The notes under the pieces were generated by a model. It did not search any database. It was not told the DNA's origin and was given only the letters and a program-made list of their open reading frames with translations. The position numbers were made by a program, and so were the translations under genes. Shown here one piece after another: positions 12,908-58,578 of a stretch of DNA of 64,000 nt. How positions within the stretch are numbered: position 1 is the stretch's first letter; the number at the start of each line of letters is the position of its first letter. Source of the stretch: a virus; IMG/VR virus record IMGVR_UViG_3300027908_000006, positions 1-64,000 of that record; one strand, 5' to 3'.

Positions 12908-13267
12908 ATGAAGATTGAATCCTCCAAGGTGAAGATTCGCGTGGAAGATGACGCCGTGGTGATCCTCCTCGATGCTCCCACGGATGGCTTTCTGACGCCG
13001 TGGCAAGACGCTTACCAGATCGGCTGGGCTTTGCGGGAACAGGCGTTGCACTTGCCGGAAGTGTTCGCCGTGGATTGGAAGGCTGTCACGCAAGAACTGG
13101 CTCAGTTGCAGGTTTCGCAGAAGGACGGTGTGGTCCTGCTCCGCTTCGCGTGGACGGATCGGCTTCGGTTCTCCAAGGCGGCTGGGTTGAAGATGGCCAA
13201 GACGCTGCGGATGGTGGCCGTTCAGGGACAGGTGGCACAGAAACAGTTGTTGGAGATGAAGGCGTGA
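12908..13267 (+). CDS. Hypothetical protein
   Basis: 119 aa, co-directional. Confidence 0.45.
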   Translation: MKIESSKVKIRVEDDAVVILLDAPTDGFLTPWQDAYQIGWALREQALHLPEVFAVDWKAVTQELAQLQVSQKDGVVLLRFAWTDRLRFSKAAGLKMAKTLRMVAVQGQVAQKQLLEMKA

Positions 13268-14797: not shown

Positions 14798-15235
14798 ATG
14801 GCTCTCCCGACAGAATTTTCCGGTCTATTGCTGGCCATTCGCTTTGTCACGGCCAGTGGCAACGGCATCATCTACAAGGCACAGCGGACCCGCGTTCACA
14901 TTCACGGTGATACTGGCGACGTTACAAGTGGTGAGGATTTAACGAAGAAACGGATCGGCACGGTTCCAGATTTCGAGGTGACAATCACCAAGGCATCCTA
15001 CGATCCTGCCAATAATCCATTCACTGGCATGATGAACTTCCGGCTGTTCATGTACATTGTCACGACAAGTATCTTTCCGGGCGGTGTTGGGACCGGACAT
15101 TCTTTCTCGTTTTATAACGCCATCTTGGATGACTTCGAGTTGGATCAGGATGCCAACATGCTCGAACCACTGTCGTTGCACATGGTGTCTGGCGATGGTA
15201 GCCAATCGCCGTCTACCTGGTACTCGCTCGACTAA
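14798..15235 (+). CDS. Putative major tail (tube) protein
   Basis: Assigned by position only: two to three genes upstream of the tape measure, with no sheath-sized gene nearby. Confidence 0.35.
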   Translation: MALPTEFSGLLLAIRFVTASGNGIIYKAQRTRVHIHGDTGDVTSGEDLTKKRIGTVPDFEVTITKASYDPANNPFTGMMNFRLFMYIVTTSIFPGGVGTGHSFSFYNAILDDFELDQDANMLEPLSLHMVSGDGSQSPSTWYSLD

Positions 15236-16437: not shown

Positions 16438-18327
16438 GTGGCCGACAGCGACGACAACATCGTTGAACTAATCCTTAGAGTCAATGCGGACAATGTATCT
16501 CCCGACGTGAAGAAAGCCATCCAGCAGGCGCAGCAGGAAGCCGACAAGAACCCGGTCAACATCGCGGCCAACACCGGTTCATCGACTGCCGGTCCCAGCG
16601 CCAGTACCATCGAAAAGCTCGCTAAATTACGGGCCAAAGAGGTTGCTCAAGGTTCCACCGCCGACAAGGATGCCCAACGGGCGCAGCGGGCACAGGATCG
16701 GGCCTTGCAGAACCAGGCTACTCGTGAGGCAAGCCAGCGATTACGAGAGGCCCGACAACCGCCGATGCAGCACGTCGCCGACTTCCGCGCCCAGCAAAAG
16801 GCGGATGCGGCGGCGTTGAAGCAGCAAGCCAAAAATCAACCTGAACAGCATCTCGCCGATTGGAAGGCTCAGCAGAAGGCCGACGCTCTCGAACTGAAGC
16901 GGCAGGTAGCCAATCCTCCAGGACAGCACGTCGAGGACTTTCGCGCTCAGCAGCGGGAAATGGAACGACAGGCGAAACTGGCCAAGGCAGAAGAAGTAAA
17001 AGCGCTGAGACAGCAAGCCGCTAACCCGATGGACCAGCATCTTCGGGACCGCACAGCCTATGAACAGACTCAAGCCCAACGCTGGCTCGACACGGAGAAG
17101 AACCGTAAGACGCAAGAGAAGGCCGATGCCGCCGCCGTGAAACAACAGCCGCGCATGGAGCAGCACGTTGCCGATTTCCGGGCACACCAGAAGCGAGTGC
17201 CGGAGGGCGAGACGGTCTATATGTCGCAGTGGCAAGCCGACCGCGCTTTGAAGCAGTTGACGCGGACGCAGGAGGACGCGAAGAAAAAGGTTCAACAGTT
17301 GGGCGACACCGCCAAGAAGACCGGCGGCGGTGTCCAGACGTTAGCAACCACGCTCGGCACGGTGGCCAGCAGTTTTACTGGCGTTTCTCTGAGCGTTGCT
17401 GGTGCTGCATATCTGACCAAAGGAATGGTCGATTATTACCAGCACACGGCGGCAGTGGCGAACCCGAACTTGGCCGCCACTGCGGAAATTAGCCAGAAAC
17501 TCTACGACGCCACGGCAGGAGCCGAACGCGGCGACTACCTGCGTTACAAGGCGGCCCTGGCTCAACAACACGCCCGCAACCCGAACAAGCCAGGCGTGGC
17601 TGAATTTGAGGCGATCAGCAACGTGACCGGCGATTTCCCAAAGTGGCTCGCATTCCAGTTAAGCAGCCAGAAAGAGTTGGATAAATTCCTCAAAGAGAAC
17701 CCAACGCTGAAATCCTTCGCGGGACTGCCACAGTCCCAACAGTTCGCGGGCATGGCCGAATGGCACGCTGCCATAACACAAGAGAATATGAACATGGGTC
17801 CGGCTGAGCGAGAACTGTGGCGAAAACAATTGAATGAGACGATGAAGGACTGGAACGGCGAACGGGCAGCGGCAGCAGATGCAAGAGAAGAACAAGCAAA
17901 GAAAATTGCTACGGGTGTGGCGGCCCAAGAACAACGGCCAGACCTGGAACAACCATCACTGTTTGGTCCGGCAGGGGAAGCAGCAGTTTTGGCTGGCAAA
18001 AAAGTAATGAATGAAGCGGCCAATGCGTGGTACAACATCCGTAATGCGACGGGTGGCGGGTACGATGAAATCCCGCCGCCATTTCCAGAGGCAGGTAGGA
18101 TGCGCGGTATATCGCCGGAAGCCTTTACAGGTGGTGGCGGTGGTCCTGTTTTTGGGCCAATGCCTCAACAATCCATTCCCGACAAGGATAAGATGCTACC
18201 CGACATCCAGACGCAACCGGGCACGAGTACACCGTTGGACGGTAAGATCGACGAATTGATTACGGCTATCAACAACCAGGCTCTCGTCATCGCCGCTGGC
18301 GTCGGCAAGGCCGTCACGGGGATGTAG
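16438..18327 (+). CDS. Tail tape measure protein
   Basis: 629 aa, helical. Tandem ~26-aa repeats at 16768-17193 (QHVADFRAQQKADAAALKQQAKNQPE / QHLADWKAQQKADALELKRQVANPPG / QHVEDFRAQQ... / QHVADFRAHQK). Hydrophobic Gly/Ala/Ser segment TLATTLGTVASSFTGVSLSVAGAAYL. Position fits. Confidence 0.75.
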   Translation: MADSDDNIVELILRVNADNVSPDVKKAIQQAQQEADKNPVNIAANTGSSTAGPSASTIEKLAKLRAKEVAQGSTADKDAQRAQRAQDRALQNQATREASQRLREARQPPMQHVADFRAQQKADAAALKQQAKNQPEQHLADWKAQQKADALELKRQVANPPGQHVEDFRAQQREMERQAKLAKAEEVKALRQQAANPMDQHLRDRTAYEQTQAQRWLDTEKNRKTQEKADAAAVKQQPRMEQHVADFRAHQKRVPEGETVYMSQWQADRALKQLTRTQEDAKKKVQQLGDTAKKTGGGVQTLATTLGTVASSFTGVSLSVAGAAYLTKGMVDYYQHTAAVANPNLAATAEISQKLYDATAGAERGDYLRYKAALAQQHARNPNKPGVAEFEAISNVTGDFPKWLAFQLSSQKELDKFLKENPTLKSFAGLPQSQQFAGMAEWHAAITQENMNMGPAERELWRKQLNETMKDWNGERAAAADAREEQAKKIATGVAAQEQRPDLEQPSLFGPAGEAAVLAGKKVMNEAANAWYNIRNATGGGYDEIPPPFPEAGRMRGISPEAFTGGGGGPVFGPMPQQSIPDKDKMLPDIQTQPGTSTPLDGKIDELITAINNQALVIAAGVGKAVTGM

Positions 18328-22501: not shown

Positions 22502-22517
22502 AGAGGGCCGGTCCGAT
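22502..22517 (+). repeat. 16-bp direct repeat AGAGGGCCGGTCCGAT, copy 1
   Basis: Immediately precedes ATG 22518. An identical 16-mer lies at 22732-22747. Confidence 0.9.
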
Positions 22518-22733
22518 ATGACCAATGGAATTCTAAACGAGCGTGGTCTAAAAGCTCTAGCAAGTGGCGAGTTGAAGCGCTGTCGGCAATGCGGCTGTGT
22601 CTACGAGGCAGCCGGAGCAGACTTCCGGCACTTCGGTTATTGTTCGCCGGGTTGCCGCGATTATTACATCGGCAGTATCCCGCGGCTGAGCGAGTTTGTG
22701 TCATGGTTGCCAGAAGAGTACCTGGAAAAGTAG
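22518..22733 (+). CDS. Small Cys-rich protein
   Basis: 71 aa with CRQCGC...CSPGC. Bracketed by the 16-bp direct repeats. Confidence 0.4.
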   Translation: MTNGILNERGLKALASGELKRCRQCGCVYEAAGADFRHFGYCSPGCRDYYIGSIPRLSEFVSWLPEEYLEK

Positions 22734-22747
22734 AGGGCCGGTCCGAT
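22732..22747 (+). repeat. 16-bp direct repeat AGAGGGCCGGTCCGAT, copy 2
   Basis: Overlaps the stop of the small ORF and the ATG (22746) of the fibre gene. Confidence 0.9.
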
Positions 22748-35610: not shown

Positions 35611-36777
35611 ATGATCCTGACCTATTCCTACAAGCTGTATTTGAGCGCCACGCAAGAAAAGACTCTTGAGCGATGGTTGCGTACCTGTTGTTGGATTTAC
35701 AACCGCGCGTTGGAGCATCGCATTAAAGCGTACCAGCGGCGTAAGGAATCCGTCAGCTATCGGGATCAGCAATCATTATTGACCGAATGGCGTGGACGAA
35801 TGGGGAACTTGCGTCTTGTGCCGGTCGAATTCGAGCGCGATGCGTTGCGTCGGGTGGATCATGGTTTCAAGGCTTTCTTTCGACGACTAGCTGATGGGGA
35901 AAAGAAAGTCGGTTTTCCACGCTTTCGTTCGCACCGCAGGTATCGGTCGCTCGAATGTCTGTTTGTGCAACCGTACTTGCGTGGCGACAGAATTCGCATT
36001 CCGAACCTTGGTTTAGTCCGATGTCGTGGGCGACTCCTGCCCATTGGCAAACAACGGGGCTTACGGATTATCCATCGGGAGGGCGGCTGGTACGCGCAGA
36101 TACTCTTGGACAATGGCGTACAGGTTCCTCCGTGCAAAACGCAAACTAGCATCGGTATCGACGTGGGCCTGACTTCGTTCGCTACGCTCAGTAACGGTGA
36201 AAAGGTTGATAATCCGCGTTTTGGGCGAAAGGCTGAACGTAAGATATGTTCTCTGCAACGGCGGGTATCGCGGCGACAGGAAGGCAGTGCCAACCGCCGC
36301 AAGGTTGCTCAACGGCTGGCAAGGCAACACGAGCGAATCGCATCTCAACGACGTGCGTTCTGCCATGTCGAAGCGCGGAAGATCGTCAACCGTTTCAACC
36401 TGATTGCTTTCGAGAGCCTAAACATCACCGATATGGTGAGAAACCATAAGTTTGCGCGTTCGGTTATGGACGCGGCTTGGGGCTTCTTCGCCTTCTGCCT
36501 GATCTACAAAGCTGCAAATGCTGGTGGTCAGGCAGTTGGCGTCGATCCTCGCAGGACAAGTCAGGAATGTCCGTGGTGTGGCAAGATCGTCCCGAAGAAA
36601 CTTTCTGAGCGTCGTCACCAGTGCGAATGCAAGCCGGGTGTGGTCATCGACAGGGACCACGCGGCGGCTCTGGTGATTCTTGCTCGCGCCGTTGCTGGTA
36701 AGCGCGGCGAATCGCTTGTGGAGGAATCGACCTCTACCGCGCCATCTGTTGGTGGTGTCGGCATGTCGTTCCGGTGA
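35611..36777 (+). CDS. tnpB: TnpB (OrfB) RNA-guided endonuclease
   Basis: 388 aa. RuvC-I IGIDVG (D184), RuvC-II IAFESL (E268), zinc finger CPWCG-x14-CEC, RuvC-III VIDRDHAAALVI (D347/D349). N-terminus YKLYLSATQEKTLERWLRTCCWIYNRAL is typical of OrfB_IS605. Confidence 0.85.
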   Translation: MILTYSYKLYLSATQEKTLERWLRTCCWIYNRALEHRIKAYQRRKESVSYRDQQSLLTEWRGRMGNLRLVPVEFERDALRRVDHGFKAFFRRLADGEKKVGFPRFRSHRRYRSLECLFVQPYLRGDRIRIPNLGLVRCRGRLLPIGKQRGLRIIHREGGWYAQILLDNGVQVPPCKTQTSIGIDVGLTSFATLSNGEKVDNPRFGRKAERKICSLQRRVSRRQEGSANRRKVAQRLARQHERIASQRRAFCHVEARKIVNRFNLIAFESLNITDMVRNHKFARSVMDAAWGFFAFCLIYKAANAGGQAVGVDPRRTSQECPWCGKIVPKKLSERRHQCECKPGVVIDRDHAAALVILARAVAGKRGESLVEESTSTAPSVGGVGMSFR

Positions 36778-36836
36778 AGCAAGTATGCGTGCTGGCTCTA
36801 ACGAACCAAGTATGTAATTACCAAAGGAAGCGTTCC

Positions 36837-37316
36837 ATGTTGAGTCTTCTCCTGTCCGCGACCCTGTTTCTACCCTTCGCCGAGAAACCGCTGTGTCCGT
36901 GCCTCTCCACCTGCCGGTGCGATGCTGACAGCTGCTTCTGTGATGCCAACGAGAAATGCACCAAGAGTTGCTACTGCGACACGCTCTTCGCCCAGGCCGT
37001 TGTGCCGGTTCCTGCTCCTGTCAAGACCATTCCCGGCGCCCCGTTCGAGTGGCGCTACACCGACGACCGGACGCAGGCCGGACTGTTTCAGGACGGCGTG
37101 CAAGTGGGAGCTTGGCGCTTCGCTGATAAGGCGTTCCGCAAGCTCAATGGCAATGTGTGGGGCGAGTTCTGCCCGTGTCCGACTGTGCCGCCGTCTGAGC
37201 CGACCGTGACGTATACGCAGACGTTCCAGGGGGGTGGTGGCTCCGCTTGCTCTGGTCCGGGTTGTGGTACTTCGGCCCCGCGCGTCGGCATCCTCGGGCG
37301 GAGGCAGAAGAAGTGA
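36837..37316 (+). CDS. Secreted Cys-rich protein (repeated CxC motifs)
   Basis: AAAGGAAG RBS and hydrophobic N-terminus MLSLLLSATLFLPFA. Cluster CPCLSTCRCDADSCFCDANEKCTKSCYC. Confidence 0.45.
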   Translation: MLSLLLSATLFLPFAEKPLCPCLSTCRCDADSCFCDANEKCTKSCYCDTLFAQAVVPVPAPVKTIPGAPFEWRYTDDRTQAGLFQDGVQVGAWRFADKAFRKLNGNVWGEFCPCPTVPPSEPTVTYTQTFQGGGGSACSGPGCGTSAPRVGILGRRQKK

Positions 37317-37492
37317 GCGAGCAATACTACTATTCCGAAGGCGCAATTCGCGCCCTCATTTTGACTAACATCAAGAGCAGGAATCCTGCGACGAAGGTTG
37401 ACATTATGGACATTCGCATCGAAGGCGTTGACCGTCTGCGAGGCTCCATATCGGTGACAGTAGAGCCACGCCACCGACAGGAGGAGAAGTAA
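37313..37492 (+). CDS. Hypothetical protein
   Basis: GTGA overlap; 59 aa. Confidence 0.35.
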   Translation: MSEQYYYSEGAIRALILTNIKSRNPATKVDIMDIRIEGVDRLRGSISVTVEPRHRQEEK

Positions 37493-40706: not shown

Positions 40707-41118
<412 letters not shown>

Positions 41119-41169: not shown

Positions 41170-41907
41170 ATGGCCGACCTAGTTGAAAGCCCGTCCGAGA
41201 TGGACTGGCTTGAACGCATCGTGGCGAGGGGGGTCATCGACCCCGACGCTATCGGGAAGTTGATCGACCTGAAGTGCAAGATGGAAGATCGGCTTGCGAG
41301 GGCCGCTTACGCCCGCGACATGAACGCTTGCCAGGGTGAGACGACTACCATCATCCGCGGGACGAAGAACAGTCGCACCGGCAAAATGTACGCCAGTCTT
41401 GAGACGGTTCTCGCTGCCGTCAAGCCTCTCTACATCAAGTACGGCTTCTCGCTCAGCTTCGGAGAGGGGGAATCGCACTTGCCGGACCACACGCGGATCA
41501 TCCTGGACATCCGACACCGAGAGGGGCACGGCGAGCGCTATCAGGGAGACTATCCACTGGACGGGAAGGGAGCCAAGGGCGGCGAAGTGATGAACGCGAT
41601 TCAAGGGCATGTCTCAAGCAACACATACGGACAGCGGGACATGATCCGCAAGGCGTTCTCGCTCGTCATCGCTGACACCGACTTGGACGGCGAACCGACG
41701 ACGCACTACGCCGATGCGGAGGACATCCGGCAAATCAACGAACTGCTCGACAAGATGGGTGAGGGAAAGCCGGTCGCGGTTCACTCAAAGAAGGTCGCAG
41801 CATTCTTCAAGTGGCTGAACGTGGACACCTTGGAGAACCTGACAGCCGAGGGCGTTCAGAAGGCGTTGCAGGAACTGCGGCGACAGGCGAACGAGGTCAA
41901 GTCATGA
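41170..41907 (+). CDS. ERF-family single-strand annealing protein
   Basis: KMYASLETVLAAVKPLYIKYGFSLSF and the following beta-rich core match the ERF pattern as I recall it. Located next to a YqaJ-type exonuclease. Confidence 0.6.
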   Translation: MADLVESPSEMDWLERIVARGVIDPDAIGKLIDLKCKMEDRLARAAYARDMNACQGETTTIIRGTKNSRTGKMYASLETVLAAVKPLYIKYGFSLSFGEGESHLPDHTRIILDIRHREGHGERYQGDYPLDGKGAKGGEVMNAIQGHVSSNTYGQRDMIRKAFSLVIADTDLDGEPTTHYADAEDIRQINELLDKMGEGKPVAVHSKKVAAFFKWLNVDTLENLTAEGVQKALQELRRQANEVKS

Positions 41908-42152: not shown

Positions 42153-42418
42153 ATTGCCCAACGTGCTGTAACGTGATGGTGACTTACACGATGGGATACT
42201 TCCATTGTGCGATTTGCGGAACCTTGAAAATGATTCCGGGCGTTCAGGGTCAACCGGCCAGCGTGTTCGTCCCGAAGCTGGTCGAACGCTGCCGGGAGTT
42301 CGAGAACGTCGCCGCACTCGCCGAGAAGGTTGGCTTCAAAAAAGGCTGGATAGCCGTCGAATGGCAGCGTCTCGGCATCGCCGAGGTAATCAACCCACCA
42401 GAAGGGAGGCCGACGTGA
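42149..42418 (+). CDS. Small zinc-ribbon protein
   Basis: ATGA overlap; CPTCC...CAICG. Confidence 0.4.
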   Translation: MNCPTCCNVMVTYTMGYFHCAICGTLKMIPGVQGQPASVFVPKLVERCREFENVAALAEKVGFKKGWIAVEWQRLGIAEVINPPEGRPT

Positions 42419-43044
42419 AATACTTCGACGTGATCCAGGGCGAAGAGCCTTGGTTCAAACTCCGCAATGGTGTACCTACCGCGAGCCGGTTCGACATGAT
42501 TCTGACGCCGAAGGAAGGCAAGCCGAGTACCCAGCAGGAGAAACTCATCAATCAGCTTGTGGGAGAAAGGCTTTCCTTGATCCCGCCCGAAGGTGTCGAG
42601 AACTACACCAACAGGGCGATGCGTTGGGGCGCCCAATGTGAGGCCGAAGCACGGGCTTACTTTTGCTTCAAGACCAGTCTTGAGGTTTACAACGGTGGCT
42701 TCTGCCTGGACGACAGCGGACGATACGGCGCATCGCCGGACGCCTTGGTTGGCACGGAAACGGCTACGACCGGAGCATTGGAACTCAAGGCGCCGCAAGC
42801 CGAGACACAAGTGGAATACCTCCGCAACGGTGGCTTGCCTCCGGCCTATCGTTGGCAATGTCAGGGGCATCTTTTGGTGACTGGCTTGCCGGTGTGCTGG
42901 TTCCTTTCGTACAGTCCAGGGCTACCGCCGCTGCTCATTCGTGTTGAGCGCGGCCCCGACACCGAAAAGCTCGCTGTCGCCCTCAACGAATTCTGGGACC
43001 GATTCATGGAAGCATTCGAGAAAGTGAAAGGAAGTGCCGGATGA
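42415..43044 (+). CDS. YqaJ-like (lambda Exo / PDDEXK) recombination exonuclease
   Basis: GTGA overlap. QGEEPWFKLRNGVPTASRFDMILT (the YqaJ W..R.G..TAS motif) and GASPDALV...ALELKAP (D...E.K). Confidence 0.65.
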   Translation: MKYFDVIQGEEPWFKLRNGVPTASRFDMILTPKEGKPSTQQEKLINQLVGERLSLIPPEGVENYTNRAMRWGAQCEAEARAYFCFKTSLEVYNGGFCLDDSGRYGASPDALVGTETATTGALELKAPQAETQVEYLRNGGLPPAYRWQCQGHLLVTGLPVCWFLSYSPGLPPLLIRVERGPDTEKLAVALNEFWDRFMEAFEKVKGSAG

Positions 43045-51814: not shown

Positions 51815-51835
51815 TCGAACCCAAGAGGTGAACCG

Positions 51836-52036
51836 ATGAAACCGGAAGAAATCGAGTACGAGGACAAGCCAGGCTACCACCGGCACTCCTGCGCTGCCTG
51901 TGGCTTCATTTGGGAGCATCGGGACTCTTGCAAGGCCGATGACTCTGCTCACGTCTGCCCGGCTTGTGGAGAACCGGAGCAAACGTGGAAATACAATGGC
52001 CCTTGCGCCCCGGAGAACGTCGATGAAAAAGTCTAA
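51836..52036 (+). CDS. Small zinc-ribbon protein
   Basis: Preceded by the GAGGTGAACCGATGAA junction; CAACG...CPACG. Confidence 0.4.
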   Translation: MKPEEIEYEDKPGYHRHSCAACGFIWEHRDSCKADDSAHVCPACGEPEQTWKYNGPCAPENVDEKV

Positions 52037-52250
52037 AGAGAAAATGAAAACCCTGGACCTGACCGTGAACGGCCACACTCTCCACGGAGAGAAAGTGATC
52101 GGCGCGTGGTTTTTCGTCTGCCCTGACTGGCCCGAAATCGACGACGAATACTACGGCTCTGCGGAGACCGGCCCCGTCATCGAAGCATTCATGGCCCACG
52201 CGTTGGCCGGTGCAATCACTGTGATTGAGAAAATGAAAGGCGGCGTCTAA
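52023..52250 (+). CDS. Hypothetical protein
   Basis: ATG 52023 (ATG 52044 is an alternative). Confidence 0.35.
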   Translation: MKKSKEKMKTLDLTVNGHTLHGEKVIGAWFFVCPDWPEIDDEYYGSAETGPVIEAFMAHALAGAITVIEKMKGGV

Positions 52251-52475
52251 ATGAAGCGCTGTCGAACGTGCGGCAAGACAAAGCCGCTCAGTGACTTCCC
52301 GCTCACCACTCCTCACCGGATAACTGGCGCGCGGTGGGAGCGAAACACCTGCCGAGTCTGCACGAATAAACGCCAACTGGAGTTGAAGAAGATACGGGAA
52401 GCAAAGGCACGCTTCCGCCGGTCCCAAGAGAAGAGGTTGCTCGGAACCAGTCCCAATCCTGCAAGTACGGGGTGA
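52251..52475 (+). CDS. Small zinc-ribbon protein
   Basis: CRTCGKTKPLSDF...CRVC; its end lies inside the 28-bp junction repeat. Confidence 0.4.
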   Translation: MKRCRTCGKTKPLSDFPLTTPHRITGARWERNTCRVCTNKRQLELKKIREAKARFRRSQEKRLLGTSPNPASTG

Positions 52476-52478
52476 ACC
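52451..52478 (+). repeat. 28-bp junction repeat TCCCAATCCTGCAAGTACGGGGTGAACC, copy 1
   Basis: Spans the stop of 52251-52475 and the RBS of 52479. The second copy at 53239-53266 has one mismatch. Confidence 0.9.
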
Positions 52479-52811
52479 ATGAAGCCGATTATCGTCTGTC
52501 TCTGCGGTTCGACCAAGTTCAAGCAAGCCTTCATCGACGCGAACTTCCGCGAGACGATGGCTGGCAAGATCGTGCTGAGTGTCGGCCTCTACAGCCACGC
52601 CGACGCGGAGGTGTACACGCCCACGGAAGCTGAAAAGCTCGCCCTGGATGAATTGCACTTCCGCAAGATCGACTTGGCCGATGAAGTGCTGATCCTTAAT
52701 GTCGACGGCTATACGGGCTACTCGACACGCCGCGAGATTAACTACGCAATGTCACAGAACAAAAAGATTCGCTATCTTTACCCGGAGGTTGTCGTCCATG
52801 CCTACAGCTAG
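52479..52811 (+). CDS. Nucleoside 2-deoxyribosyltransferase-like protein (tentative)
   Basis: MKPIIVCLCGS...KIDLADEVLILNVDGYTGYSTRREINYAMSQNKKI resembles the Rossmann-like pattern of that superfamily. Confidence 0.35.
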   Translation: MKPIIVCLCGSTKFKQAFIDANFRETMAGKIVLSVGLYSHADAEVYTPTEAEKLALDELHFRKIDLADEVLILNVDGYTGYSTRREINYAMSQNKKIRYLYPEVVVHAYS

Positions 52812-53023
52812 AATCAGCAGAGAGCTGGAGGCTCAGATCATCGCCATGCCCGGCACGGCGGCGTTTCTTACGGCGCAAGGTCTTCTTCCGTGGCGGTCTA
52901 TGCTTAGACATAGAGCCTCCAGGTAAGAGCGCAGCCTGTTTGTCGGCTTCCCCAGTGTGCTTCCAAAACAGACGGGGAACCGTCCAGTACGGACAGGGCT
53001 GCTAAACCGACAGGATCAGCGAG

Positions 53024-53052
53024 GACCGGAGTGTGCAACCACTCCGGTCTTT
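53024..53052 (+). terminator. Terminator-like hairpin in a non-coding gap
   Basis: GACCGGAGTG (53024-53033), 6-nt loop, CACTCCGGTC (53040-53049): a perfect 10-bp stem followed by TTTGCCGGGTTTC. Confidence 0.45.
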
Positions 53053-53067
53053 GCCGGGTTTCAGGGA

Positions 53068-53271
53068 ATGATGGGCATTCTCTACCGGATCGACGACGGG
53101 ATTGCGGAGGACGACGCCTGCGCAATGCTGGACGGCATCCGCGAAGAACTGGCCGAGTTCGCGGCTATGGTCCAGAGAGGGGAGCGGTCGCTCTACAGCG
53201 GAAGTGGAAGAAGAAACGGGAGGCTCTCAAGTGAACAATCCCAATCCTGCAAGTACGAGGTGAACCGATGA
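53068..53271 (+). CDS. Hypothetical protein
   Basis: ATG 53068. Its C-terminal codons lie in the 28-bp junction repeat, but in a different frame from copy 1. Confidence 0.35.
   Translation: MMGILYRIDDGIAEDDACAMLDGIREELAEFAAMVQRGERSLYSGSGRRNGRLSSEQSQSCKYEVNR
53239..53266 (+). repeat. 28-bp junction repeat, copy 2
   Basis: TCCCAATCCTGCAAGTACGAGGTGAACC, immediately before ATG 53268. Confidence 0.9.
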
Positions 53272-53699
53272 AAACCAAAAAAGCGCCGCCGATCCCCAAA
53301 AAGTATCGGAAGCCCCGGAAGGTGCATTTCTGGGGCCAAGAGTACACCGTGACTCCGGCGGTGTGCGAAGCTCACCACGGCAACGGCGAGCTACTCCTGT
53401 GGTTTGAGCCGCTGAATACGCGGCCCGACTATTACCTTATCCGCGTCGATTCCGACTTCTTCGCGGCGCCGGACTCGAACGGTTACGACCAGATCGACGC
53501 CGTGATCGACCTGCTGATCGACGAGTTTTCTGAGAAGGAACGCGAGCGTGAAAATCTCGCCGAAGACCTACGCGAGCAGGGCATTGAGCCGAACGGCGAC
53601 AACACCGACCTGGCTGGCAACGAAGAGCGGCTTGGCTGGCCGGTGCTGAGCCTGGACAGCGGTTATTCCTGGGGAGAGGTCTGCAAACTTAGAGGATGA
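53268..53699 (+). CDS. Hypothetical protein
   Basis: 143 aa. Confidence 0.4.
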   Translation: MKTKKAPPIPKKYRKPRKVHFWGQEYTVTPAVCEAHHGNGELLLWFEPLNTRPDYYLIRVDSDFFAAPDSNGYDQIDAVIDLLIDEFSEKERERENLAEDLREQGIEPNGDNTDLAGNEERLGWPVLSLDSGYSWGEVCKLRG

Positions 53700-53703
53700 A
53701 CCA

Positions 53704-54141
53704 ATGGGCATCGACCCGAATTCCGAGCTTGGCCGGAAGTGTCTCGCTCTGGCCGGACTCGCCGAGCCGGTCAAGCCGCTCCAGACGGTGTTCTCCTGCG
53801 TTCTGCCGTTGCCTCCGTCCACTAATAATCTCTTCGCTTCTGTCGGTAAGCGGCGTGTCAAGAGCAAGGCGTACCGCGATTGGATTACAGAAGCGATTCA
53901 ATCTGTGGAAGAGGTCTTCAGTGTCGCTACGCCTGTCTCTATCACACTGACGCTGACAGGACAGGTGAATGAACAACGCGACCTTGCGAACATCGAAAAA
54001 GCAAGCGTCGATTTGCTTGTGGCGTGGGACGTGATTCCCGATGACAGCCTGAAATTCGTGCATTCAATTAACCTTCGCTATCTGCCTAGCGATTCCTCTC
54101 CGTGTGTCCAAGTTGAAGTAAGGACTATTGACAATGCCTAG
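53704..54141 (+). CDS. rusA: RusA-family Holliday junction resolvase
   Basis: LPLPPSTNNLF...SKAYRDW...QRDLANIEKASVDLLVAWDVIPDDS is the RusA pattern. Confidence 0.65.
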   Translation: MGIDPNSELGRKCLALAGLAEPVKPLQTVFSCVLPLPPSTNNLFASVGKRRVKSKAYRDWITEAIQSVEEVFSVATPVSITLTLTGQVNEQRDLANIEKASVDLLVAWDVIPDDSLKFVHSINLRYLPSDSSPCVQVEVRTIDNA

Positions 54142-54351
54142 CGATACTGCGAGGCACGAAGAGAAAATCGTGGTGGGCCTACTGTGCCGATCATCTGTGC
54201 GGCCGGAAGATTGAGGACGGAAAAGTGATGCACCAAGTTCGCCGGGATTCCGCTTGACACGGCCAAGCCGCCGGAGATTTCGTAGAATGAAGAACGGCAG
54301 TCGGGTACGAACCGACTGCCGTTCAACACAACCCGCAGTGGAGTGCAGGTC

Positions 54352-54891
54352 ATGCCTGAGTTCGATTCTACGCTTGAGTACCGCGATGTTCCAGAGTTTC
54401 CCGGCTATCGCGTCGGTTCAGACGGCTCTGTATGGAGCGGCAAAACTGGCTCCTGGAAAGAACTGAAAGGTAGCCGTGTCGGAGAAATGGGCTATCGAGC
54501 AGTCTTGCTCAACGCTACAACCAGCCGCAAGGTCCACCGCCTTGTCTTGGAAGCGTTCGTCGGTCCATGCCCAGAAGGAATGGTGGCGGCCCATCATCCT
54601 GATCCCAACCCATTGAACTGTTCGCTTTCAAACTTGCGTTGGGCAACTCGGAAAGAAAACGAACAGGACAAGTTCAGACAGGGACGCCGCAAGTGCGTGT
54701 ACTTGGAAAAGAAACGCGCCGGGCAAGCCCAACGGCTCGCCGCACGGTTGGAGAGGAAAGCGGCGAGGGCGCTACTGCCAAGTCGTCAAGTCCTCTGGCA
54801 ACGAAAGATGCTCGCTCAGGGACGATGTGTTCAATGTGGCAAGAAACACAGCGGCAACAAAAAGCGTTGCGGATCGTGCCTTGCGAAATGA
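54352..54891 (+). CDS. HNH homing endonuclease with NUMOD4-like N-terminus
   Basis: YRDVPEFPGYRVGSDGSVWS...GYRAVLL...VHRLVLEAFVGPCPEGMVAAHHPDPNPLNCSLSNLRWATRKEN. Confidence 0.75.
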   Translation: MPEFDSTLEYRDVPEFPGYRVGSDGSVWSGKTGSWKELKGSRVGEMGYRAVLLNATTSRKVHRLVLEAFVGPCPEGMVAAHHPDPNPLNCSLSNLRWATRKENEQDKFRQGRRKCVYLEKKRAGQAQRLAARLERKAARALLPSRQVLWQRKMLAQGRCVQCGKKHSGNKKRCGSCLAK

Positions 54892-55158
54892 AGCTGATAC
54901 TCGCCCGCACGGTAGGGTACTCGACACACCGAGAACGTGTCGTACCTCAGCAGGACCGCTGCAAACCGCGGCGGATAAAGGCTATGTCAGCCAAATGACT
55001 AGGGGCCGCTCTTGGTGAGCGGCGAGCGTTGCTGTCGTAAGCAACCCCGGCCTGTTGAGATTGACCTTCGCTTCCTCTTCCCCTTCAAAGGGGGTAAGGG
55101 GGTTTATCCGCCTTGCAGTTCCAACAAGTAGCCGCTCAGCAGTGAGCGAGGGGGCAAC

Positions 55159-55635
55159 ATACTGACAATCTCTCTGTGGCAACCCTGGGCAACTCTGCTC
55201 GTGAACGGGGAGAAGCGGATCGAAACCCGCTCTTGGCCGTTTCCGCGTCCCATGCCGTGTGTTCTCGTAATACACGCCGCGAAAAAGTGGAATACGGAAC
55301 TGGAAAGCATGACTACCATTCCGCCGTTTCAACCAGCGTTACAATGGAGCCTGCGGAAACAATTCGGCCGGTATCTGCACGAGGACTTCGACCGCTCTTT
55401 CGGTGCTGTCGTTGGTATCGTCCGAGTGGCTTCTTGTGTACCTACCGAGACGTTGTTCCGCGAGGTTGTCGGGCCAAAGGAACTGGCGTTCGGTGATTAT
55501 TCACCGGGTAGGTTCGCGTGGATTTGCGACCGCTTCCACGCTCTGCCGGTTCCTGTTCCTTGCAAGGGTCGGCAAGCTTTGTTTCAGTGGCTACCGACAC
55601 CGGATGTAATCCTTCCTGAGTGGGCAACTGAGTGA
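55159..55635 (+). CDS. ASCH-domain protein
   Basis: (I)LTISLWQPWATLLVNGEKRIETRSWP...FGAVVGIVRV...GRFAWICDRFHALPVPVPCKGRQALF is the ASCH pattern. The homologous N-terminus lies upstream of the track GTG 55201. In-frame candidates are ATA 55159 and CTG 55162, with no ATG. Confidence 0.6.
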   Translation: MLTISLWQPWATLLVNGEKRIETRSWPFPRPMPCVLVIHAAKKWNTELESMTTIPPFQPALQWSLRKQFGRYLHEDFDRSFGAVVGIVRVASCVPTETLFREVVGPKELAFGDYSPGRFAWICDRFHALPVPVPCKGRQALFQWLPTPDVILPEWATE

Positions 55636-55649
55636 GCGAGGGGGAGCCG

Positions 55650-56000
55650 ATGAGCGACCTGAGCCAGCTGAGTCCGGCGCCGTGGCGAGTCGAAGAGGGA
55701 TGGAGTGACATTGTCGGCAAGGTCTGGCAAGTGTTTGGTCCGTCTGGTGTTGTCGGCAAATTCCTTTCGGAAGAAGATGCCAATCAATTCGTTCTGGCCC
55801 GCAACGCCTTAGAGGTGATGATGTGGCGCGGGTGGTACGCTTATCCGTCGAATCTGATGGATACTGTGTTGTGGACAGTTGCGGGGATGCCGATAGCAGT
55901 AGAACGAGAATTCGGCAAGTGTCAATATCGTGACCCGTTCACGGCTCTGGTCGAAGCGGAAAAGTGGTACAGGAACCATATTCAAGCCGCTCAGCAGTAA
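55650..56000 (+). CDS. Hypothetical protein
   Basis: ATG 55650 within the junction repeat; 116 aa. Confidence 0.45.
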   Translation: MSDLSQLSPAPWRVEEGWSDIVGKVWQVFGPSGVVGKFLSEEDANQFVLARNALEVMMWRGWYAYPSNLMDTVLWTVAGMPIAVEREFGKCQYRDPFTALVEAEKWYRNHIQAAQQ

Positions 56001-56018
56001 GCGAGAAAGGACCGAACG

Positions 56019-56180
56019 ATGATCGGGAAAAGAAAAGCTAAAGCCGCTACTCCAAAATGCAGGCGGTGCGGAGACAAACCGCGTGGGGTACATTCTCCCA
56101 AAGGTGGCTGGGTGACGTGTCCCGACTGTGGAGGCGCGGCTCTGAAACGACTTCTTGAAGGAAACAAAGCTCAGCAGTGA
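56019..56180 (+). CDS. Small zinc-ribbon protein (below the ORF-track size cut-off)
   Basis: 53 aa: MIGKRKAKAATPKCRRCGDKPRGVHSPKGGWVTCPDCGGAALKRLLEGNKAQQ. Bounded by junction repeats. Confidence 0.4.
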   Translation: MIGKRKAKAATPKCRRCGDKPRGVHSPKGGWVTCPDCGGAALKRLLEGNKAQQ

Positions 56181-56196
56181 GCGAGGGGGAAGGAAG

Positions 56197-56430
56197 ATGA
56201 AAGTTTGGGAAGCAACTATGATCGTGCTAAGGAAAACGGACAATCCAGCGGTTATGTGGGGAGATGAAGGATTACTCCATCTAATCGCCGATGAGTTGGG
56301 ATGGAAACACGACGCCTGGAAAACGAGTGAGCGAGTTCTGGCCGCTTTACGGAAGACGCCGGGGCCGTTGAGTAAGGGATTGACTCGCTGCCACAATCGC
56401 CTTGTGTCTATTTTTAGAATGCCTGAGTGA
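56197..56430 (+). CDS. Hypothetical protein
   Basis: ATG 56197 after the GAGGGGGAAGGAAG RBS; 77 aa. Confidence 0.45.
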   Translation: MKVWEATMIVLRKTDNPAVMWGDEGLLHLIADELGWKHDAWKTSERVLAALRKTPGPLSKGLTRCHNRLVSIFRMPE

Positions 56431-56444
56431 GCGAGGGGGAGCCG

Positions 56445-56570
56445 ATGGCACATTTGTTTCTGGCAGGAATGTGGTTGAGCGGTATCGACAACTCGGTGTT
56501 CGTGATCTATTACCGCGATCTGCCGAGGTTGCCGAGGTTGGCGTATCAAGGTCCGATCTGCCTGAACTGA
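56445..56570 (+). CDS. Very small hypothetical protein
   Basis: 41 aa starting at the ATG of the fifth junction repeat. Contains a 9-bp tandem duplication (GCCGAGGTT twice). Confidence 0.25.
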   Translation: MAHLFLAGMWLSGIDNSVFVIYYRDLPRLPRLAYQGPICLN

Positions 56571-56580
56571 AGGAGAACCG

Positions 56581-56862
56581 ATGAAATGCCGACATTGCGG
56601 TCACGTCCGGGCGAATCGACCGAGGCGACTTTGTCACCGCTGCTTCTACGACCTGAGTATCCGCGACCTGTACCCACCGTCGAAGATGTCGCCGGGTCCA
56701 GAGCCAACGGAATCCGAGTTGCTCGCCATGATCGCTGAGCAGCTGCCGACGATGCCACCAAAGGAATGCGAGGATTACGACGCCGTTCGTGATCCAGCAT
56801 TGTACGCACCGCGGATCGTGCGAATAGCCACGGCGAGAAAGCCCATGCGTAAGGAGTGGTGA
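56581..56862 (+). CDS. Hypothetical protein (N-terminal CxxC..CxxC)
   Basis: AAGGAGAACCGATG start region; 93 aa. Confidence 0.45.
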   Translation: MKCRHCGHVRANRPRRLCHRCFYDLSIRDLYPPSKMSPGPEPTESELLAMIAEQLPTMPPKECEDYDAVRDPALYAPRIVRIATARKPMRKEW

Positions 56863-57134
56863 TGAGCAAGTCGGCAAGAGCAGCGATGGCTCGATTGATC
56901 TGGAGAGGTAGGTACGGCAAGATTGACGCTTGCCGTCCGAGTTACGCCATACCTAAAGAGCAGCTTCGATTTTTCACCTTTGGTCCAGTGGCGAACAGAA
57001 TGGACGTGCGGGCTGCCTTTTACAAATCGCCAGAGCGCTTGGCTCGTGTTGCAGCTTTGGAGGAAATAGTCCAGAGAGACTTGAAGGCGATAGGTGGCCG
57101 TTGGTGGCTTACAGAGGTTCCGATCGTGGCCTGA
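56856..57134 (+). CDS. Hypothetical protein
   Basis: 92 aa. Confidence 0.4.
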   Translation: MVMSKSARAAMARLIWRGRYGKIDACRPSYAIPKEQLRFFTFGPVANRMDVRAAFYKSPERLARVAALEEIVQRDLKAIGGRWWLTEVPIVA

Positions 57135-57157
57135 CAATGCGGAAGGAGTGGTGAACG

Positions 57158-57361
57158 ATGACCACAGTACAACTCAAGTACGCAGCGGAAGACGCATTCG
57201 ATGCGTGGCTCGACTGTCCCCTGAACGCGAGTCGCCAGCGCAAGGAAAAACTACGGGCAGCGGCACACGTAGCCCAGAAGGAGTACGAGCGGGCTGCCGG
57301 GATCGTGCAGAAGAAGCATATCCGGGGCGCGGACGTGCCTTACTTCAGCGCCACACGTTGA
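57158..57361 (+). CDS. Hypothetical protein
   Basis: GGAAGGAG RBS; 67 aa. Confidence 0.4.
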   Translation: MTTVQLKYAAEDAFDAWLDCPLNASRQRKEKLRAAAHVAQKEYERAAGIVQKKHIRGADVPYFSATR

Positions 57362-57380
57362 TCGAACAAGCTGCCGATAC

Positions 57381-57408
57381 TTGACTATCACAAAGCACAG
57401 CGTACTAT
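57381..57408 (+). promoter_or_regulatory. Sigma70-like promoter candidate
   Basis: TTGACT (57381-57386), 16-nt spacer, TACTAT (57403-57408), in the gap before the second XRE gene. Confidence 0.4.
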
Positions 57409-57519
57409 AACGGTGTCTCCTCAACAAGCCGGGTCGGTTGCCGAAGTGATGAGCGGTGGCCGGTCCTGCTTCACTGGCGGCTCCTTCTACGCTCAAGCTC
57501 GCACATAGGTTAGAACGTC

Positions 57520-57987
57520 ATGTCTATCCCTTTCGCGGTTGCTTTGGAGGACTCGCGTCAGATCGGCCCTGACCTACACGAAGTCCCTGCCGCGCTGTCG
57601 GATTCTCCGGCGCCGGATTCCACGGCAGACGCCGCAGGATCGCCGCTGCTGGCCTCACAGGACCATGCCGACCCGGATAGCGTCTCGAAGCAGAATCGTA
57701 AGCCACGCGCCAAGCCTGGCAGCGGTAGCCAAGCCTGGCAGCGGGCGGCCCGCACCTTCGGCGGCCGACTGCGGGAGTTGCGTCGCGCGGCGGGGTTGAC
57801 TCAGGTCCAGCTGGCGGAGCGCTGCGGGATGCACTATCAGGCGGTGGCACAGCTCGAGCGCGGACCAGACCGGAGCGCTCCGAAACGCGGCGCGGCCGGT
57901 CCGGTATGGGGCGCAGTGGTGGCACTGGCGGCCGCGCTAGGAGTCCAAGTGACGGACTTCCTCCCGGACGACGCAGGAACGCATTAG
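57520..57987 (+). CDS. XRE-family HTH regulator with a long disordered N-terminus
   Basis: FGGRLRELRRAAGLTQVQLAERCGMHYQAVAQLERG is the HTH_3 pattern in the C-terminal half. Confidence 0.65.
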   Translation: MSIPFAVALEDSRQIGPDLHEVPAALSDSPAPDSTADAAGSPLLASQDHADPDSVSKQNRKPRAKPGSGSQAWQRAARTFGGRLRELRRAAGLTQVQLAERCGMHYQAVAQLERGPDRSAPKRGAAGPVWGAVVALAAALGVQVTDFLPDDAGTH

Positions 57988-58365
57988 CCGCTAGATCGGA
58001 GCGCGAGCCGGACCGATACCCTACTCGGCTCTCCGCGCGGTGGCGCCCCTGTTTTCGGCAGTGTACGGAAGCGTTGTAGCGATACTGCTCTATTTGTGCA
58101 GAATGATACACCAATATCAGCAGAATGAGGCAGTCAGAGACTAGCACCGTCTTTAATTCCGTCCGTGCCATTCGACGCGGTTGAATTTTCATCTCGTTAC
58201 ACCATATAGACTTACGGCGATTGTGCGGCATGGTTTCCCATCATCAAACACGAACGGCACGGATACTGCTATATCTCTTCCTGCCCAACGCGGTCAAAGA
58301 AAACTCGATAGGCAGTCAGCGCCGGAGGGACTGCCGACGACTGACCTACTCGGAAGGATACGACA

Positions 58366-58578
58366 ATGCTACAGACAGACGATGGATTGTTCGACTTGAC
58401 GGCGTGCGGCACGTTGTCCGCACGCCTGACCGCCGCGCTCAATCCGCCGCCGTCCGAGATGGGTTTGCGGCGCATCAAGATCGCCGCGGGCATCCTGGAC
58501 GACATTCGGAGCGCGGAAGACCGGCTCGCGGGACTGTGCTGCGACTGTGCAGCACAGCGGGGAGATACGACCTACTAG
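58366..58578 (+). CDS. Hypothetical protein
   Basis: 70 aa. Confidence 0.35.
   Translation: MLQTDDGLFDLTACGTLSARLTAALNPPPSEMGLRRIKIAAGILDDIRSAEDRLAGLCCDCAAQRGDTTY

Follow-up and report, generated by a model that had tools for sequence, protein, structure and literature searches.

A private family of stop-to-start junction repeats between small genes of an uncultivated phage

The DNA analyzed here is a 64-kb window (positions 1 to 64,000) of a 69-kb metagenomic viral contig, IMG/VR record IMGVR_UViG_3300027908_000006, in which nearly every open reading frame (ORF) lies on the + strand. Within 1.3 kb of this window, five consecutive gene boundaries carry copies of one short repeat, built around AGTGAGCGAG(GGGG), which takes in the end of one ORF, its stop codon and the Shine-Dalgarno (SD) sequence of the next. 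These copies are stop-SD-start junctions that are related by descent and private to this genome, and the repeat family is real and far beyond chance. The explanation we favor, at a probability of roughly 0.55, is that the five repeats are local duplicates of a single junction module, produced by recombinational gene gain and now acting as ordinary translational coupling signals. The array is most likely a variant of the linker and start-associated repeats already described in phages rather than a new exchange machine.

An initial annotation of the window had described five consecutive repeats of stop codon, ribosome binding site (RBS) and start codon, and their positions hold, the copy at 55996 having one mismatch. 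The motif begins on the + strand at 55141, 55631, 55996, 56176 and 56426, and the junctions that contain it are listed here together with two further occurrences of its core.

55130..55154, + strand: junction copy J0, AGCCGCTCAGCAGTGAGCGAGGGGG, after a 10-codon ORF ending AAQQ-stop and before the ASCH gene
55628..55652, + strand: junction copy J1, CTGAGTGAGCGAGGGGGAGCCGATG, between the ASCH gene and the 116-aa ORF; TGA at 55633-55635, SD AGGGGG, ATG at 55650; 25 of 25 positions identical to J5
55985..56021, + strand: junction copy J2, AGCCGCTCAGCAGTAAGCGAGAAAGGACCGAACGATG, decayed, between the 116-aa and 53-aa ORFs; stop TAA, SD AAAGGA
56169..56199, + strand: junction copy J3, GCTCAGCAGTGAGCGAGGGGGAAGGAAGATG, between the 53-aa and 77-aa ORFs; 21 of 21 positions identical to J0
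56423..56447, + strand: junction copy J5, CTGAGTGAGCGAGGGGGAGCCGATG, between the 77-aa and 41-aa ORFs; its 5' end coincides with the Pro-Glu codons closing the domain that the 77-aa proteins conserve
56326..56335, + strand: internal AGTGAGCGAG in the 77-aa ORF, read AGT GAG CGA (Ser-Glu-Arg)
37312..37321, + strand: solo 10-mer core on the stop codon of a 180-aa ORF that follows tnpB

Exact AGTGAGCGAG is found on the + strand at 55141, 55631, 56176, 56326, 56426 and 37312, and the form at 55996 is AGTAAGCGAG. The original list of five stands for the junctions and gains one copy at 56326, a coding look-alike within the 77-aa ORF. The identity of J1 and J5 over the 25-mer CTGAGTGAGCGAGGGGGAGCCGATG (55628 and 56423) is as had been reported. 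A group of three copies had also been placed at 55131, 55986 and 56169; the group itself is sound, as GCTCAGCAGTGAGCGAGGGGG is identical over 21 of 21 nt at 55134 and 56169 and recurs at 81% at 55989, but the first two of those positions lie 3 nt 5' of the repeat starts because AGCCGCTCAGCAGT is common to 55130 and 55985. On its 5' side J0 thus matches J2 (55985) over 14 nt of flank, and it matches J3 over 21 nt.

The 14-mer AGTGAGCGAGGGGG has four copies in the window and, barring a coding hexamer array (40850-41100) and one coding word, is the sole 14-mer with at least three copies in the 64 kb. A search of the window with a 15-mer and up to three mismatches gave no further credible copy. 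The 10-mer with one mismatch allowed gave nine matches against five expected, and six of its seven + strand matches fall inside the 1.3 kb. Among 2.9 million viral contigs of IMG/VR, the 14-mer was found once each in 84 contigs, which is the chance level, the 25-mer had no match, and no other contig carried the core 14-mer twice. The relatives that were fetched (L149, L152-L159, L122, L166 and L169) lack the motif, so the initial suggestion of looking for it across viral contigs and relatives turned up no sequence with more than one copy. Locus L018 is identical to the window over 18,351 compared bases; since the contig is identical in independent assemblies, the repeats are no assembly artifact.

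The plainest alternative is that the repeats arose by chance or simply reflect the RBS context preferred by this phage or its host. Parts of the motif do follow habits of the genome: AG-TGA-G is a frequent stop context (8 of 10 AGTGAG sites), and CCGATG is a favored combination of spacer and start. These habits explain part of the motif, but not identities of 14 to 25 nt. The usual SD forms of the phage are GGAGG, AAGGAG and GAGGTGA (91, 28 and 7 occurrences on the + strand, respectively). AGGGGG is found 15 times on that strand; four of these occurrences belong to the array, and outside it just about two precede a start. AGGGGG pairs with the anti-SD at the 3' end of 16S rRNA only through G-U wobble and is a weaker match than GGAGG. 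As AGGGGG is not the normal SD of this genome, its use at four adjacent junctions points to common descent and not to convergence on a strong RBS. With the four-copy 14-mer, the 21- and 25-nt identities and the clustering in 1.3 kb also unaccounted for, this explanation is very improbable, and for the phage it is effectively refuted, in keeping with the initial view that the motif is more than a preferred RBS context.

The composition first ascribed to the repeat, consisting of upstream tail codons, a stop, a G-rich RBS and in two copies the next ATG, can be read directly in the sequence. At 55631, 55996, 56176, 56426 and 37312 the upstream ORF ends with the TGA of AG-TGA-G (TAA in J2), whereas at 55141 this TGA closes only an ORF of 10 codons, in agreement with the earlier remark that the first copy has few sense codons ahead of it. 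The G-run of the motif is the SD of the next ORF, the gap from stop to start is 14-18 nt, and AGGGGG lies 5-9 nt before the ATG codons at 55650, 56197 and 56445 and the CTG at 55162. Within the motif a GTG overlaps the stop (GTGA). At 55632 and 56427 this GTG is in frame with the ATG six codons on, giving MSEGEPM. The GTG at 55142 and that at 56177 each begin a mini-ORF of 7 codons, and its TGA shares bases with the start that follows (CTGA at 55162, ATGA at 56197). Readthrough or frameshifting built on this GTG carries no weight in our interpretation. The 10-mer at 37312 near tnpB, also pointed out at the outset, does sit on the stop of a 180-aa ORF, and its GTG probably starts a 59-aa ORF (GTGA overlap, GGAGG upstream). 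The tnpB gene encodes a TnpB protein (OrfB_IS605 plus a Cas12f-like TNB domain) inside the phage, and the 180-aa ORF overlaps it downstream (positions 35611-37492); a link between the motif and a TnpB guide or target was considered and dropped for want of supporting evidence.

The junctions separate a string of small genes, whose sizes (including the ASCH gene and the ORFs of 116, 53, 77 and 41 aa) are as first described.

55162..55635, + strand: cassette 1, ASCH-domain protein with Pfam and PHROG matches; no canonical start
55650..56000, + strand: cassette 2, 116-aa ORF (o116), with only two distant homologs
56019..56180, + strand: cassette 3, 53-aa CxxC...CxxC zinc-ribbon ORF (o53), with weak zinc-ribbon matches
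56197..56430, + strand: cassette 4, 77-aa ORF (o77), of a conserved phage family with 55 homologs at 47-73% identity
56445..56570, + strand: cassette 5, 41-aa ORF (o41), whose downstream junction is of the ordinary AAGGAGAACCGATG type

Pairwise BLASTP among the products of ASCH, o116, o53, o77, o41 and their neighbors detected no similarity, and tandem gene duplication followed by divergence was ruled out, as the cassette proteins do not resemble one another. The ends of these genes are nevertheless shared where the repeat reaches into them. The unrelated proteins o116 and o53 both end AQQ-stop, and the ORF before J0, with only ten sense codons, closes with AQQ as well. Members of the o77 family share a conserved domain with the end ...FRLPE, beyond which they have 0-17 residues of variable sequence; in the window gene the stop follows directly on PE, at the point where the repeat sets in. 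Adaptation scores per codon are 0-0.24 in the cassettes as against 0.36 in core genes, as expected for recent or fast-evolving genes.

Beyond the 14-nt core, identity among the copies is pairwise and mosaic: agreement extends over 25 nt between J1 and J5 and over 21 nt between J0 and J3, J0 also matches J2 on the 5' side, and J2 has lost the G-run. Such flanks indicate copies of different ages that arose by duplication and decayed, and not the core of a binding site set in random flanks. Nor do the repeats behave as RNA elements or transcription signals. A hairpin of 5-6 bp (GCTCA-GCAG-TGAGC) is present in only three of the five copies and has no U-tract, no common or significant RNA fold was found at the five copies, where fold energies did not differ from those of shuffled sequences, and there was no Rfam match between 53 and 59 kb. 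A scan of 53500-58500 for sigma-70-type promoters gave a sole promoter-like site, at 57381, and none at the repeats. An RNA element was rejected on the missing Rfam match, the missing shared fold and the hairpin in three copies only, and a promoter or terminator role on the promoter scan and the partial, U-tract-free hairpin. We count the absence of shared RNA structure, Rfam match and promoter-like site in favor of duplication.

The same anatomy can be read as that of a cis-regulatory site on mRNA or DNA, in the manner of start-associated sequences (SAS) or stoperators, with a phage or host factor recognizing AGUGAGCGAGGGGGA and switching the small genes jointly. The motif is asymmetric, occurs in one orientation and overlaps the SD 5-9 nt before the start, and its conserved AGTGAGCG bases extend beyond those that pair with 16S rRNA; these are the properties that define the SAS of Cluster K mycobacteriophages (PMC3203893). 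There are four perfect 14-nt cores, and the solo copy is in phase at another stop/start overlap. Candidate regulators are also at hand, with a helix-turn-helix (HTH) regulator gene 1 kb downstream and a possibly RNA-binding ASCH protein within the array. The copies, however, number just five in 1.3 kb plus one solo, and they are absent from the relatives fetched and, as a multi-copy element, from IMG/VR. A separate factor would be required for each of the several other private junction repeats in the genome. The pairwise, mosaic flanks show no sharp core, no RNA structure is shared, and J2 lacks a third of the core yet precedes an intact gene. A joint regulatory site is therefore possible, if unlikely.

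It is also conceivable that the junctions became alike with no turnover of genes, either through short-patch gene conversion or through selection for an efficient coupling signal. The uniform 14-18-nt distances from stop to start would fit this, as might the internal copy at 56326. There the segment TS(D/E)RV is conserved in the o77 family, and the homolog in L169 has AGTGATCGGG, from which the window differs by two bases and one Asp-to-Glu change; the internal copy could be a conversion patch. We treat it as a likely coding look-alike and not a junction, although it may have been touched by gene conversion. Selection for efficiency is made unlikely by AGGGGG being a weaker anti-SD match than GGAGG, and conversion leaves unexplained both the tail codons shared by unrelated proteins and the remnant tail at J0. 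Homogenization of this kind appears quite improbable.

Local duplication of junctions would not be peculiar to this array. The window holds three further private families, with exact 16-19-nt repeats at neighboring gene starts. A second junction-repeat family occupies 51825..53273 on the + strand, with GAGGTGAACCGATGAAA at 51825 and 53257 and the 19-nt TCCCAATCCTGCAAGTACG at 52451 and 53239. Two upstream genes read the 19-nt repeat in different frames, so it is the DNA that was copied and not a peptide. A third junction pair (56845..57154, + strand) consists of ATGCG(T/G)AAGGAGTGGTGA at 56845 and 57137, and a further pair of AGAGGGCCGGTCCGAT at 22502 and 22732 (span 22502-22747). Similar cases are present in relatives, and in this genome and the relatives together such private repeats at neighboring gene starts range from 14 to 35 nt. 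Three junctions in a row in L153 (3459-4083) carry AGTGAGGTTCCGGAGAT, which begins AGTGAG like the window motif. Two unrelated proteins have this repeat translated as their tail, SEVPEIRRRL, and the third copy directly follows a TAG stop. Two adjacent starts of L149 carry GGGGGTGACGACGTGA, and L149 also has a direct repeat identical over 21 of 21 nt (16802-16822 and 17931-17951) that brackets a PAPS-reductase gene. This 21-nt repeat encodes LGWYRCT, and only its second copy runs on as an ORF (...TGCRARQYCP...), which suggests that the PAPS-reductase gene was inserted into a zinc-finger ORF with target duplication. A tally of local exact repeats of at least 14 nt in the window and in seven relatives gave 29, of which 10 have both copies at SD-supported starts, although no more than 11-19% of positions qualify; the tally comes from a crude heuristic.

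Repeats of other kinds were seen in relatives. An intergenic gap of L153 (10685-10819) contains four 37-nt units in tandem (GTAGCCG...GAGTGAACCG) that look like iterons or operators. In L122, two genes are preceded by copies of a 46-nt repeat that ends in ATG and is 93% identical between them (13214-13259 and 15173-15218), and (CAGC)AAGACAAATG at four starts has no SD-like sequence inside and may be a different initiation signal.

The mechanism we propose takes as its module the end of the upstream gene (two to five codons and the stop) and the unusual AGGGGG SD, with the spacer and ATG included in two copies. A foreign small gene would have been spliced into a hypervariable block of early genes by recombination that used or copied the resident junction, so that the newcomer gained a stop and the next gene kept its RBS. 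The likely agent would be annealing on short homologies by the recombination module of the phage, for instance in single-crossover integration of a circular or tandem intermediate or in unequal exchange.

41170-41907, + strand: ERF-family annealing protein, phage recombination module with YqaJ
42205-43044, + strand: YqaJ exonuclease, phage recombination module with ERF

Single-crossover integration of a circular or tandem intermediate through a short homology would leave the insert flanked by direct repeats, and the PAPS-reductase case in L149 looks like such an event. Selection would afterwards retain only what translation needs, and older copies such as J2 would decay. The surviving copies would now end one ORF and re-initiate the next, and as direct repeats of 14-25 nt they could still serve as substrates for deletions or duplications, an incidental effect rather than the work of a dedicated system. 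We count the other private junction repeats, the hypervariable region and the presence of ERF and YqaJ in favor of duplication. Together with the mosaic flanks, they also make reasonable the initial comparison with recombination-prone linkers. Just 5' of the ERF gene, at 40850-41100, is an imperfect hexanucleotide tandem array (TGGCTC/TGGCTA/TGGCGA units) that presumably encodes a Gly-Ser-Tyr-rich low-complexity segment; comparable arrays occur in the relatives L122 (5318-5950, 9-nt period), L004 (12-nt period) and L115 (15-nt period).

Several points temper our preference for duplication. No recombination event was seen, and the array proteins are singletons from assemblies of one phage, with no presence/absence polymorphism at the repeats. 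The identities of 21/21 and 25/25 could equally be maintained by selection for the site of a trans-acting factor. The copy that stands alone at 37312 is 18 kb distant from the array; it lies in the same phase on a stop codon and fits a functional stop/start context at least equally well. The steps involving ERF/YqaJ and a circular intermediate are drawn by analogy from known properties of those protein families.

A stronger proposal, raised in the initial annotation, is a dedicated cassette-exchange system in which the repeats were selected as crossover points, in the manner of integrons or of the PeSL mini-circles of T4-type phages, for swapping accessory or anti-defense genes between co-infecting phages. 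Direct repeats do bracket single small genes in a hypervariable region of a phage that encodes ERF and YqaJ, the L149 gene is bracketed by its perfect 21-nt direct repeat, and T4-type PeSL elements behave in this way (PMC2839356). The motif, however, is in no other genome and so has no exchange partner, no second contig carries multiple copies, and homologs of the cassettes elsewhere are unflanked. The ASCH, o116 and o77 homologs in other phages have other neighbors and no motif; those of o77 in L166 and L169, for example, have different neighbors and junctions. The array lacks a promoter, a terminator and any inverted-repeat or recombinase-type site, no gene for a site-specific recombinase adjoins it, and Pfam and PHROG matches gave no anti-defense annotation on the cassettes. 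Repeats of 14-25 nt are in addition short for efficient homologous exchange. A dedicated system is rather remote, and this part of the initial interpretation was not borne out. A broader formulation, which we consider doubtful, is that phages of this plausibly planctomycete-infecting group have portable junction linkers, copied with or captured by incoming genes, that actively mediate gain, loss or exchange of single small genes via ERF/YqaJ (e.g., through excised mini-circles), this array being the clearest case, or else that the motif is a new SAS-like translational operator recognized by some factor of the phage, for example the ASCH protein of cassette 1.

Lambdoid boundary or linker sequences are short sequences conserved between phages at module borders and have been proposed as preferred crossover points for mosaic exchange. 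The array resembles them as a short sequence at gene boundaries and differs in that its copies stand in tandem in one genome, the 25-mer being in no other contig and the 14-mer giving single chance matches only. The stoperators of Cluster A mycobacteriophages such as L5 are 13-bp asymmetric sites, dispersed at about 20-30 per genome, that are bound by the immunity repressor and block transcription. Orientation and short intergenic position are similar in the array, but the array copies are clustered and nothing seen in this analysis ties the motif to the HTH protein (57520-57987). Integron attC sites differ in being imperfect inverted repeats of about 60-140 bp that mark the end of every cassette and are accompanied by a tyrosine integrase. 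These 14-25-nt direct repeats lack an extended inverted repeat, and there is no integrase within 10 kb of the array, the neighbors being HNH, RusA and HTH genes.

The SAS of Cluster K mycobacteriophages, described in a paper that also mentions stoperators, have a 13-bp consensus, GGGATAGGAGCCC, present in 11-19 copies over half of the genome (Pope et al. 2011, PMC3203893). They are conserved across subclusters before different gene families and lie 3-7 bp 5' of the starts of non-structural genes, combining an SD core with non-pairing conserved bases and sometimes an upstream stop (PMC3203893); their function was still untested in 2025 (PMC12699233). The array copies are like them in being asymmetric, SD-containing, all on the + strand and 5-9 nt before starts, and they differ in being clustered in 1.3 kb with one solo, in not being conserved in relatives, and in a mosaic identity that runs into the last codons of the upstream gene. 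A search with the SAS consensus and at most two mismatches found none at the array; its two matches lie on the - strand and are no more than chance explains (1.06 expected). By geometry, Cluster K SAS are the closest functional analog, one that fails on sequence, dispersal and conservation. The closest evolutionary analog is the PeSL (promoter-early stem-loop) of T4-type phages, which combines a strong sigma-70-like early promoter with a terminator stem-loop, is shared between related genomes and has been shown to form mini-circles (Arbiol et al. 2010, PMC2839356; PMC4122927). PeSL elements flank small ORFan genes in hyperplastic regions, and recombination between copies is a proposed driver of gene gain and loss (PMC2839356; PMC4122927). 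The array repeats likewise flank small genes, in a region with one small gene common with relatives, but the analogy fails for want of a promoter and terminator: they are stop-SD-start junctions inside an operon and are private to one genome.

Among the cassette genes, ASCH has an unusual start. There is no ATG, GTG or TTG between the in-frame stop at 55129 and the conserved ASCH N-terminus (TISLWQPW). Position 1 of the Pfam ASCH profile aligns to residue 3 counted from CTG 55162, and homologs match from residue 2-3. The gene thus probably starts at CTG 55162 or ATA 55159, or is coupled to the mini-ORF; a G5 run could also permit a -1 slip, and a public gene caller shortened it to 108 aa. The surroundings of one o116 homolog, on the long contig L019, are unrelated and Mu-like; the other homolog is on a contig of 525 bp. 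The zinc-ribbon ORF o53 has poor coding statistics and is not called as a gene in the public collection. For o41 there is no homolog information, and its own frame has the best coding score of the three frames.

Upstream of the array, the gap after the HNH gene is as first described.

54343-54891, + strand: HNH endonuclease gene, followed by a 239-nt structured non-coding stretch up to 55129 that abuts J0

The 239-nt stretch has a fold z of -2.7. The HNH gene and this stretch are probably a mobile homing-endonuclease insertion that truncated what preceded J0, and the J0 tail resembles what would remain of a gene after replacement of its body. The pyrimidine tract CTTCCTCTTCCCCTT of the 239-nt stretch can pair with the G-rich SD of J0. 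A perfect 13-bp hairpin lies 5' of the HNH gene (54292-54324), and the gene forms an island between RusA and the array.

The contig carries genes for ERF, YqaJ, TnpB, Endonuclease VII, a DEAD-box helicase, RusA, the HNH endonuclease and an HTH regulator, and ERF and YqaJ are encoded in several relatives as well. The helicase has 229 homologs, the best of which are 60-66% identical and lie on contigs of 15-70 kb, and these numbers place the phage in a populated but uncultivated group. A DNA search with 54300-58000 against 50,697 deposited phage records gave no match, and no close relatives were found in IMG/VR with the 116-aa ORF and the helicase. Searches with the ASCH gene in viral, metagenome and genome collections gave only relatives of at most 48% identity, none of which carries the motif; where loci from these searches seemed to hold several hits (L014, L133, L076, L145 and others), the hits turned out to be due to chance or low complexity. 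Its best cellular match is a Phycisphaerales metagenome-assembled genome at 48% identity, from which a planctomycete host is plausible.

By exact-sequence look-up, the ten proteins around the array form singleton clusters or nearly so; the sole variant, P0011, is a frameshifted read-level copy. The collections searched contained no variants of the array or population variants. For the relative P0039, with 12 contigs, the only difference at the junctions fits a 1-nt frameshift, as judged from called gene coordinates only, without alignment; gene calls outside L018 are crude calls made in this analysis. The region 3' of the helicase has just one small gene (o105) in common with relatives, and the C-terminal tail of o105 is itself variable; the small-gene region is, by this comparison of gene content, hypervariable among relatives. 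CsrA-like, RMF-like and Acb2/Tad1-hairpin (anti-defense sponge) proteins occur in the small-gene regions of relatives (L152 8685-8879, L159 5726-5929, L169 1237-1629, L154 4732-4947 and L166 13271-13528). A phage CsrA was rejected as the binder of the motif, since CsrA is present in the relatives L152, L159 and L169 and has no homolog in the window.

Whether the repeats are duplicated junctions or recognition sites, the finding is incremental and overturns nothing. Should the motif be a recognition site, start-associated sequences would have a second example, independent of the first. If duplication is the correct explanation, the array would be a clean fossil record of the addition of single genes without breaking the translation of an operon, each newcomer receiving a ready-made linker of stop, RBS and start. 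It would then offer a concrete mechanism for the accretion of morons and ORFans in a poorly studied group of phages, and would widen the PeSL idea from transcription to translation signals.

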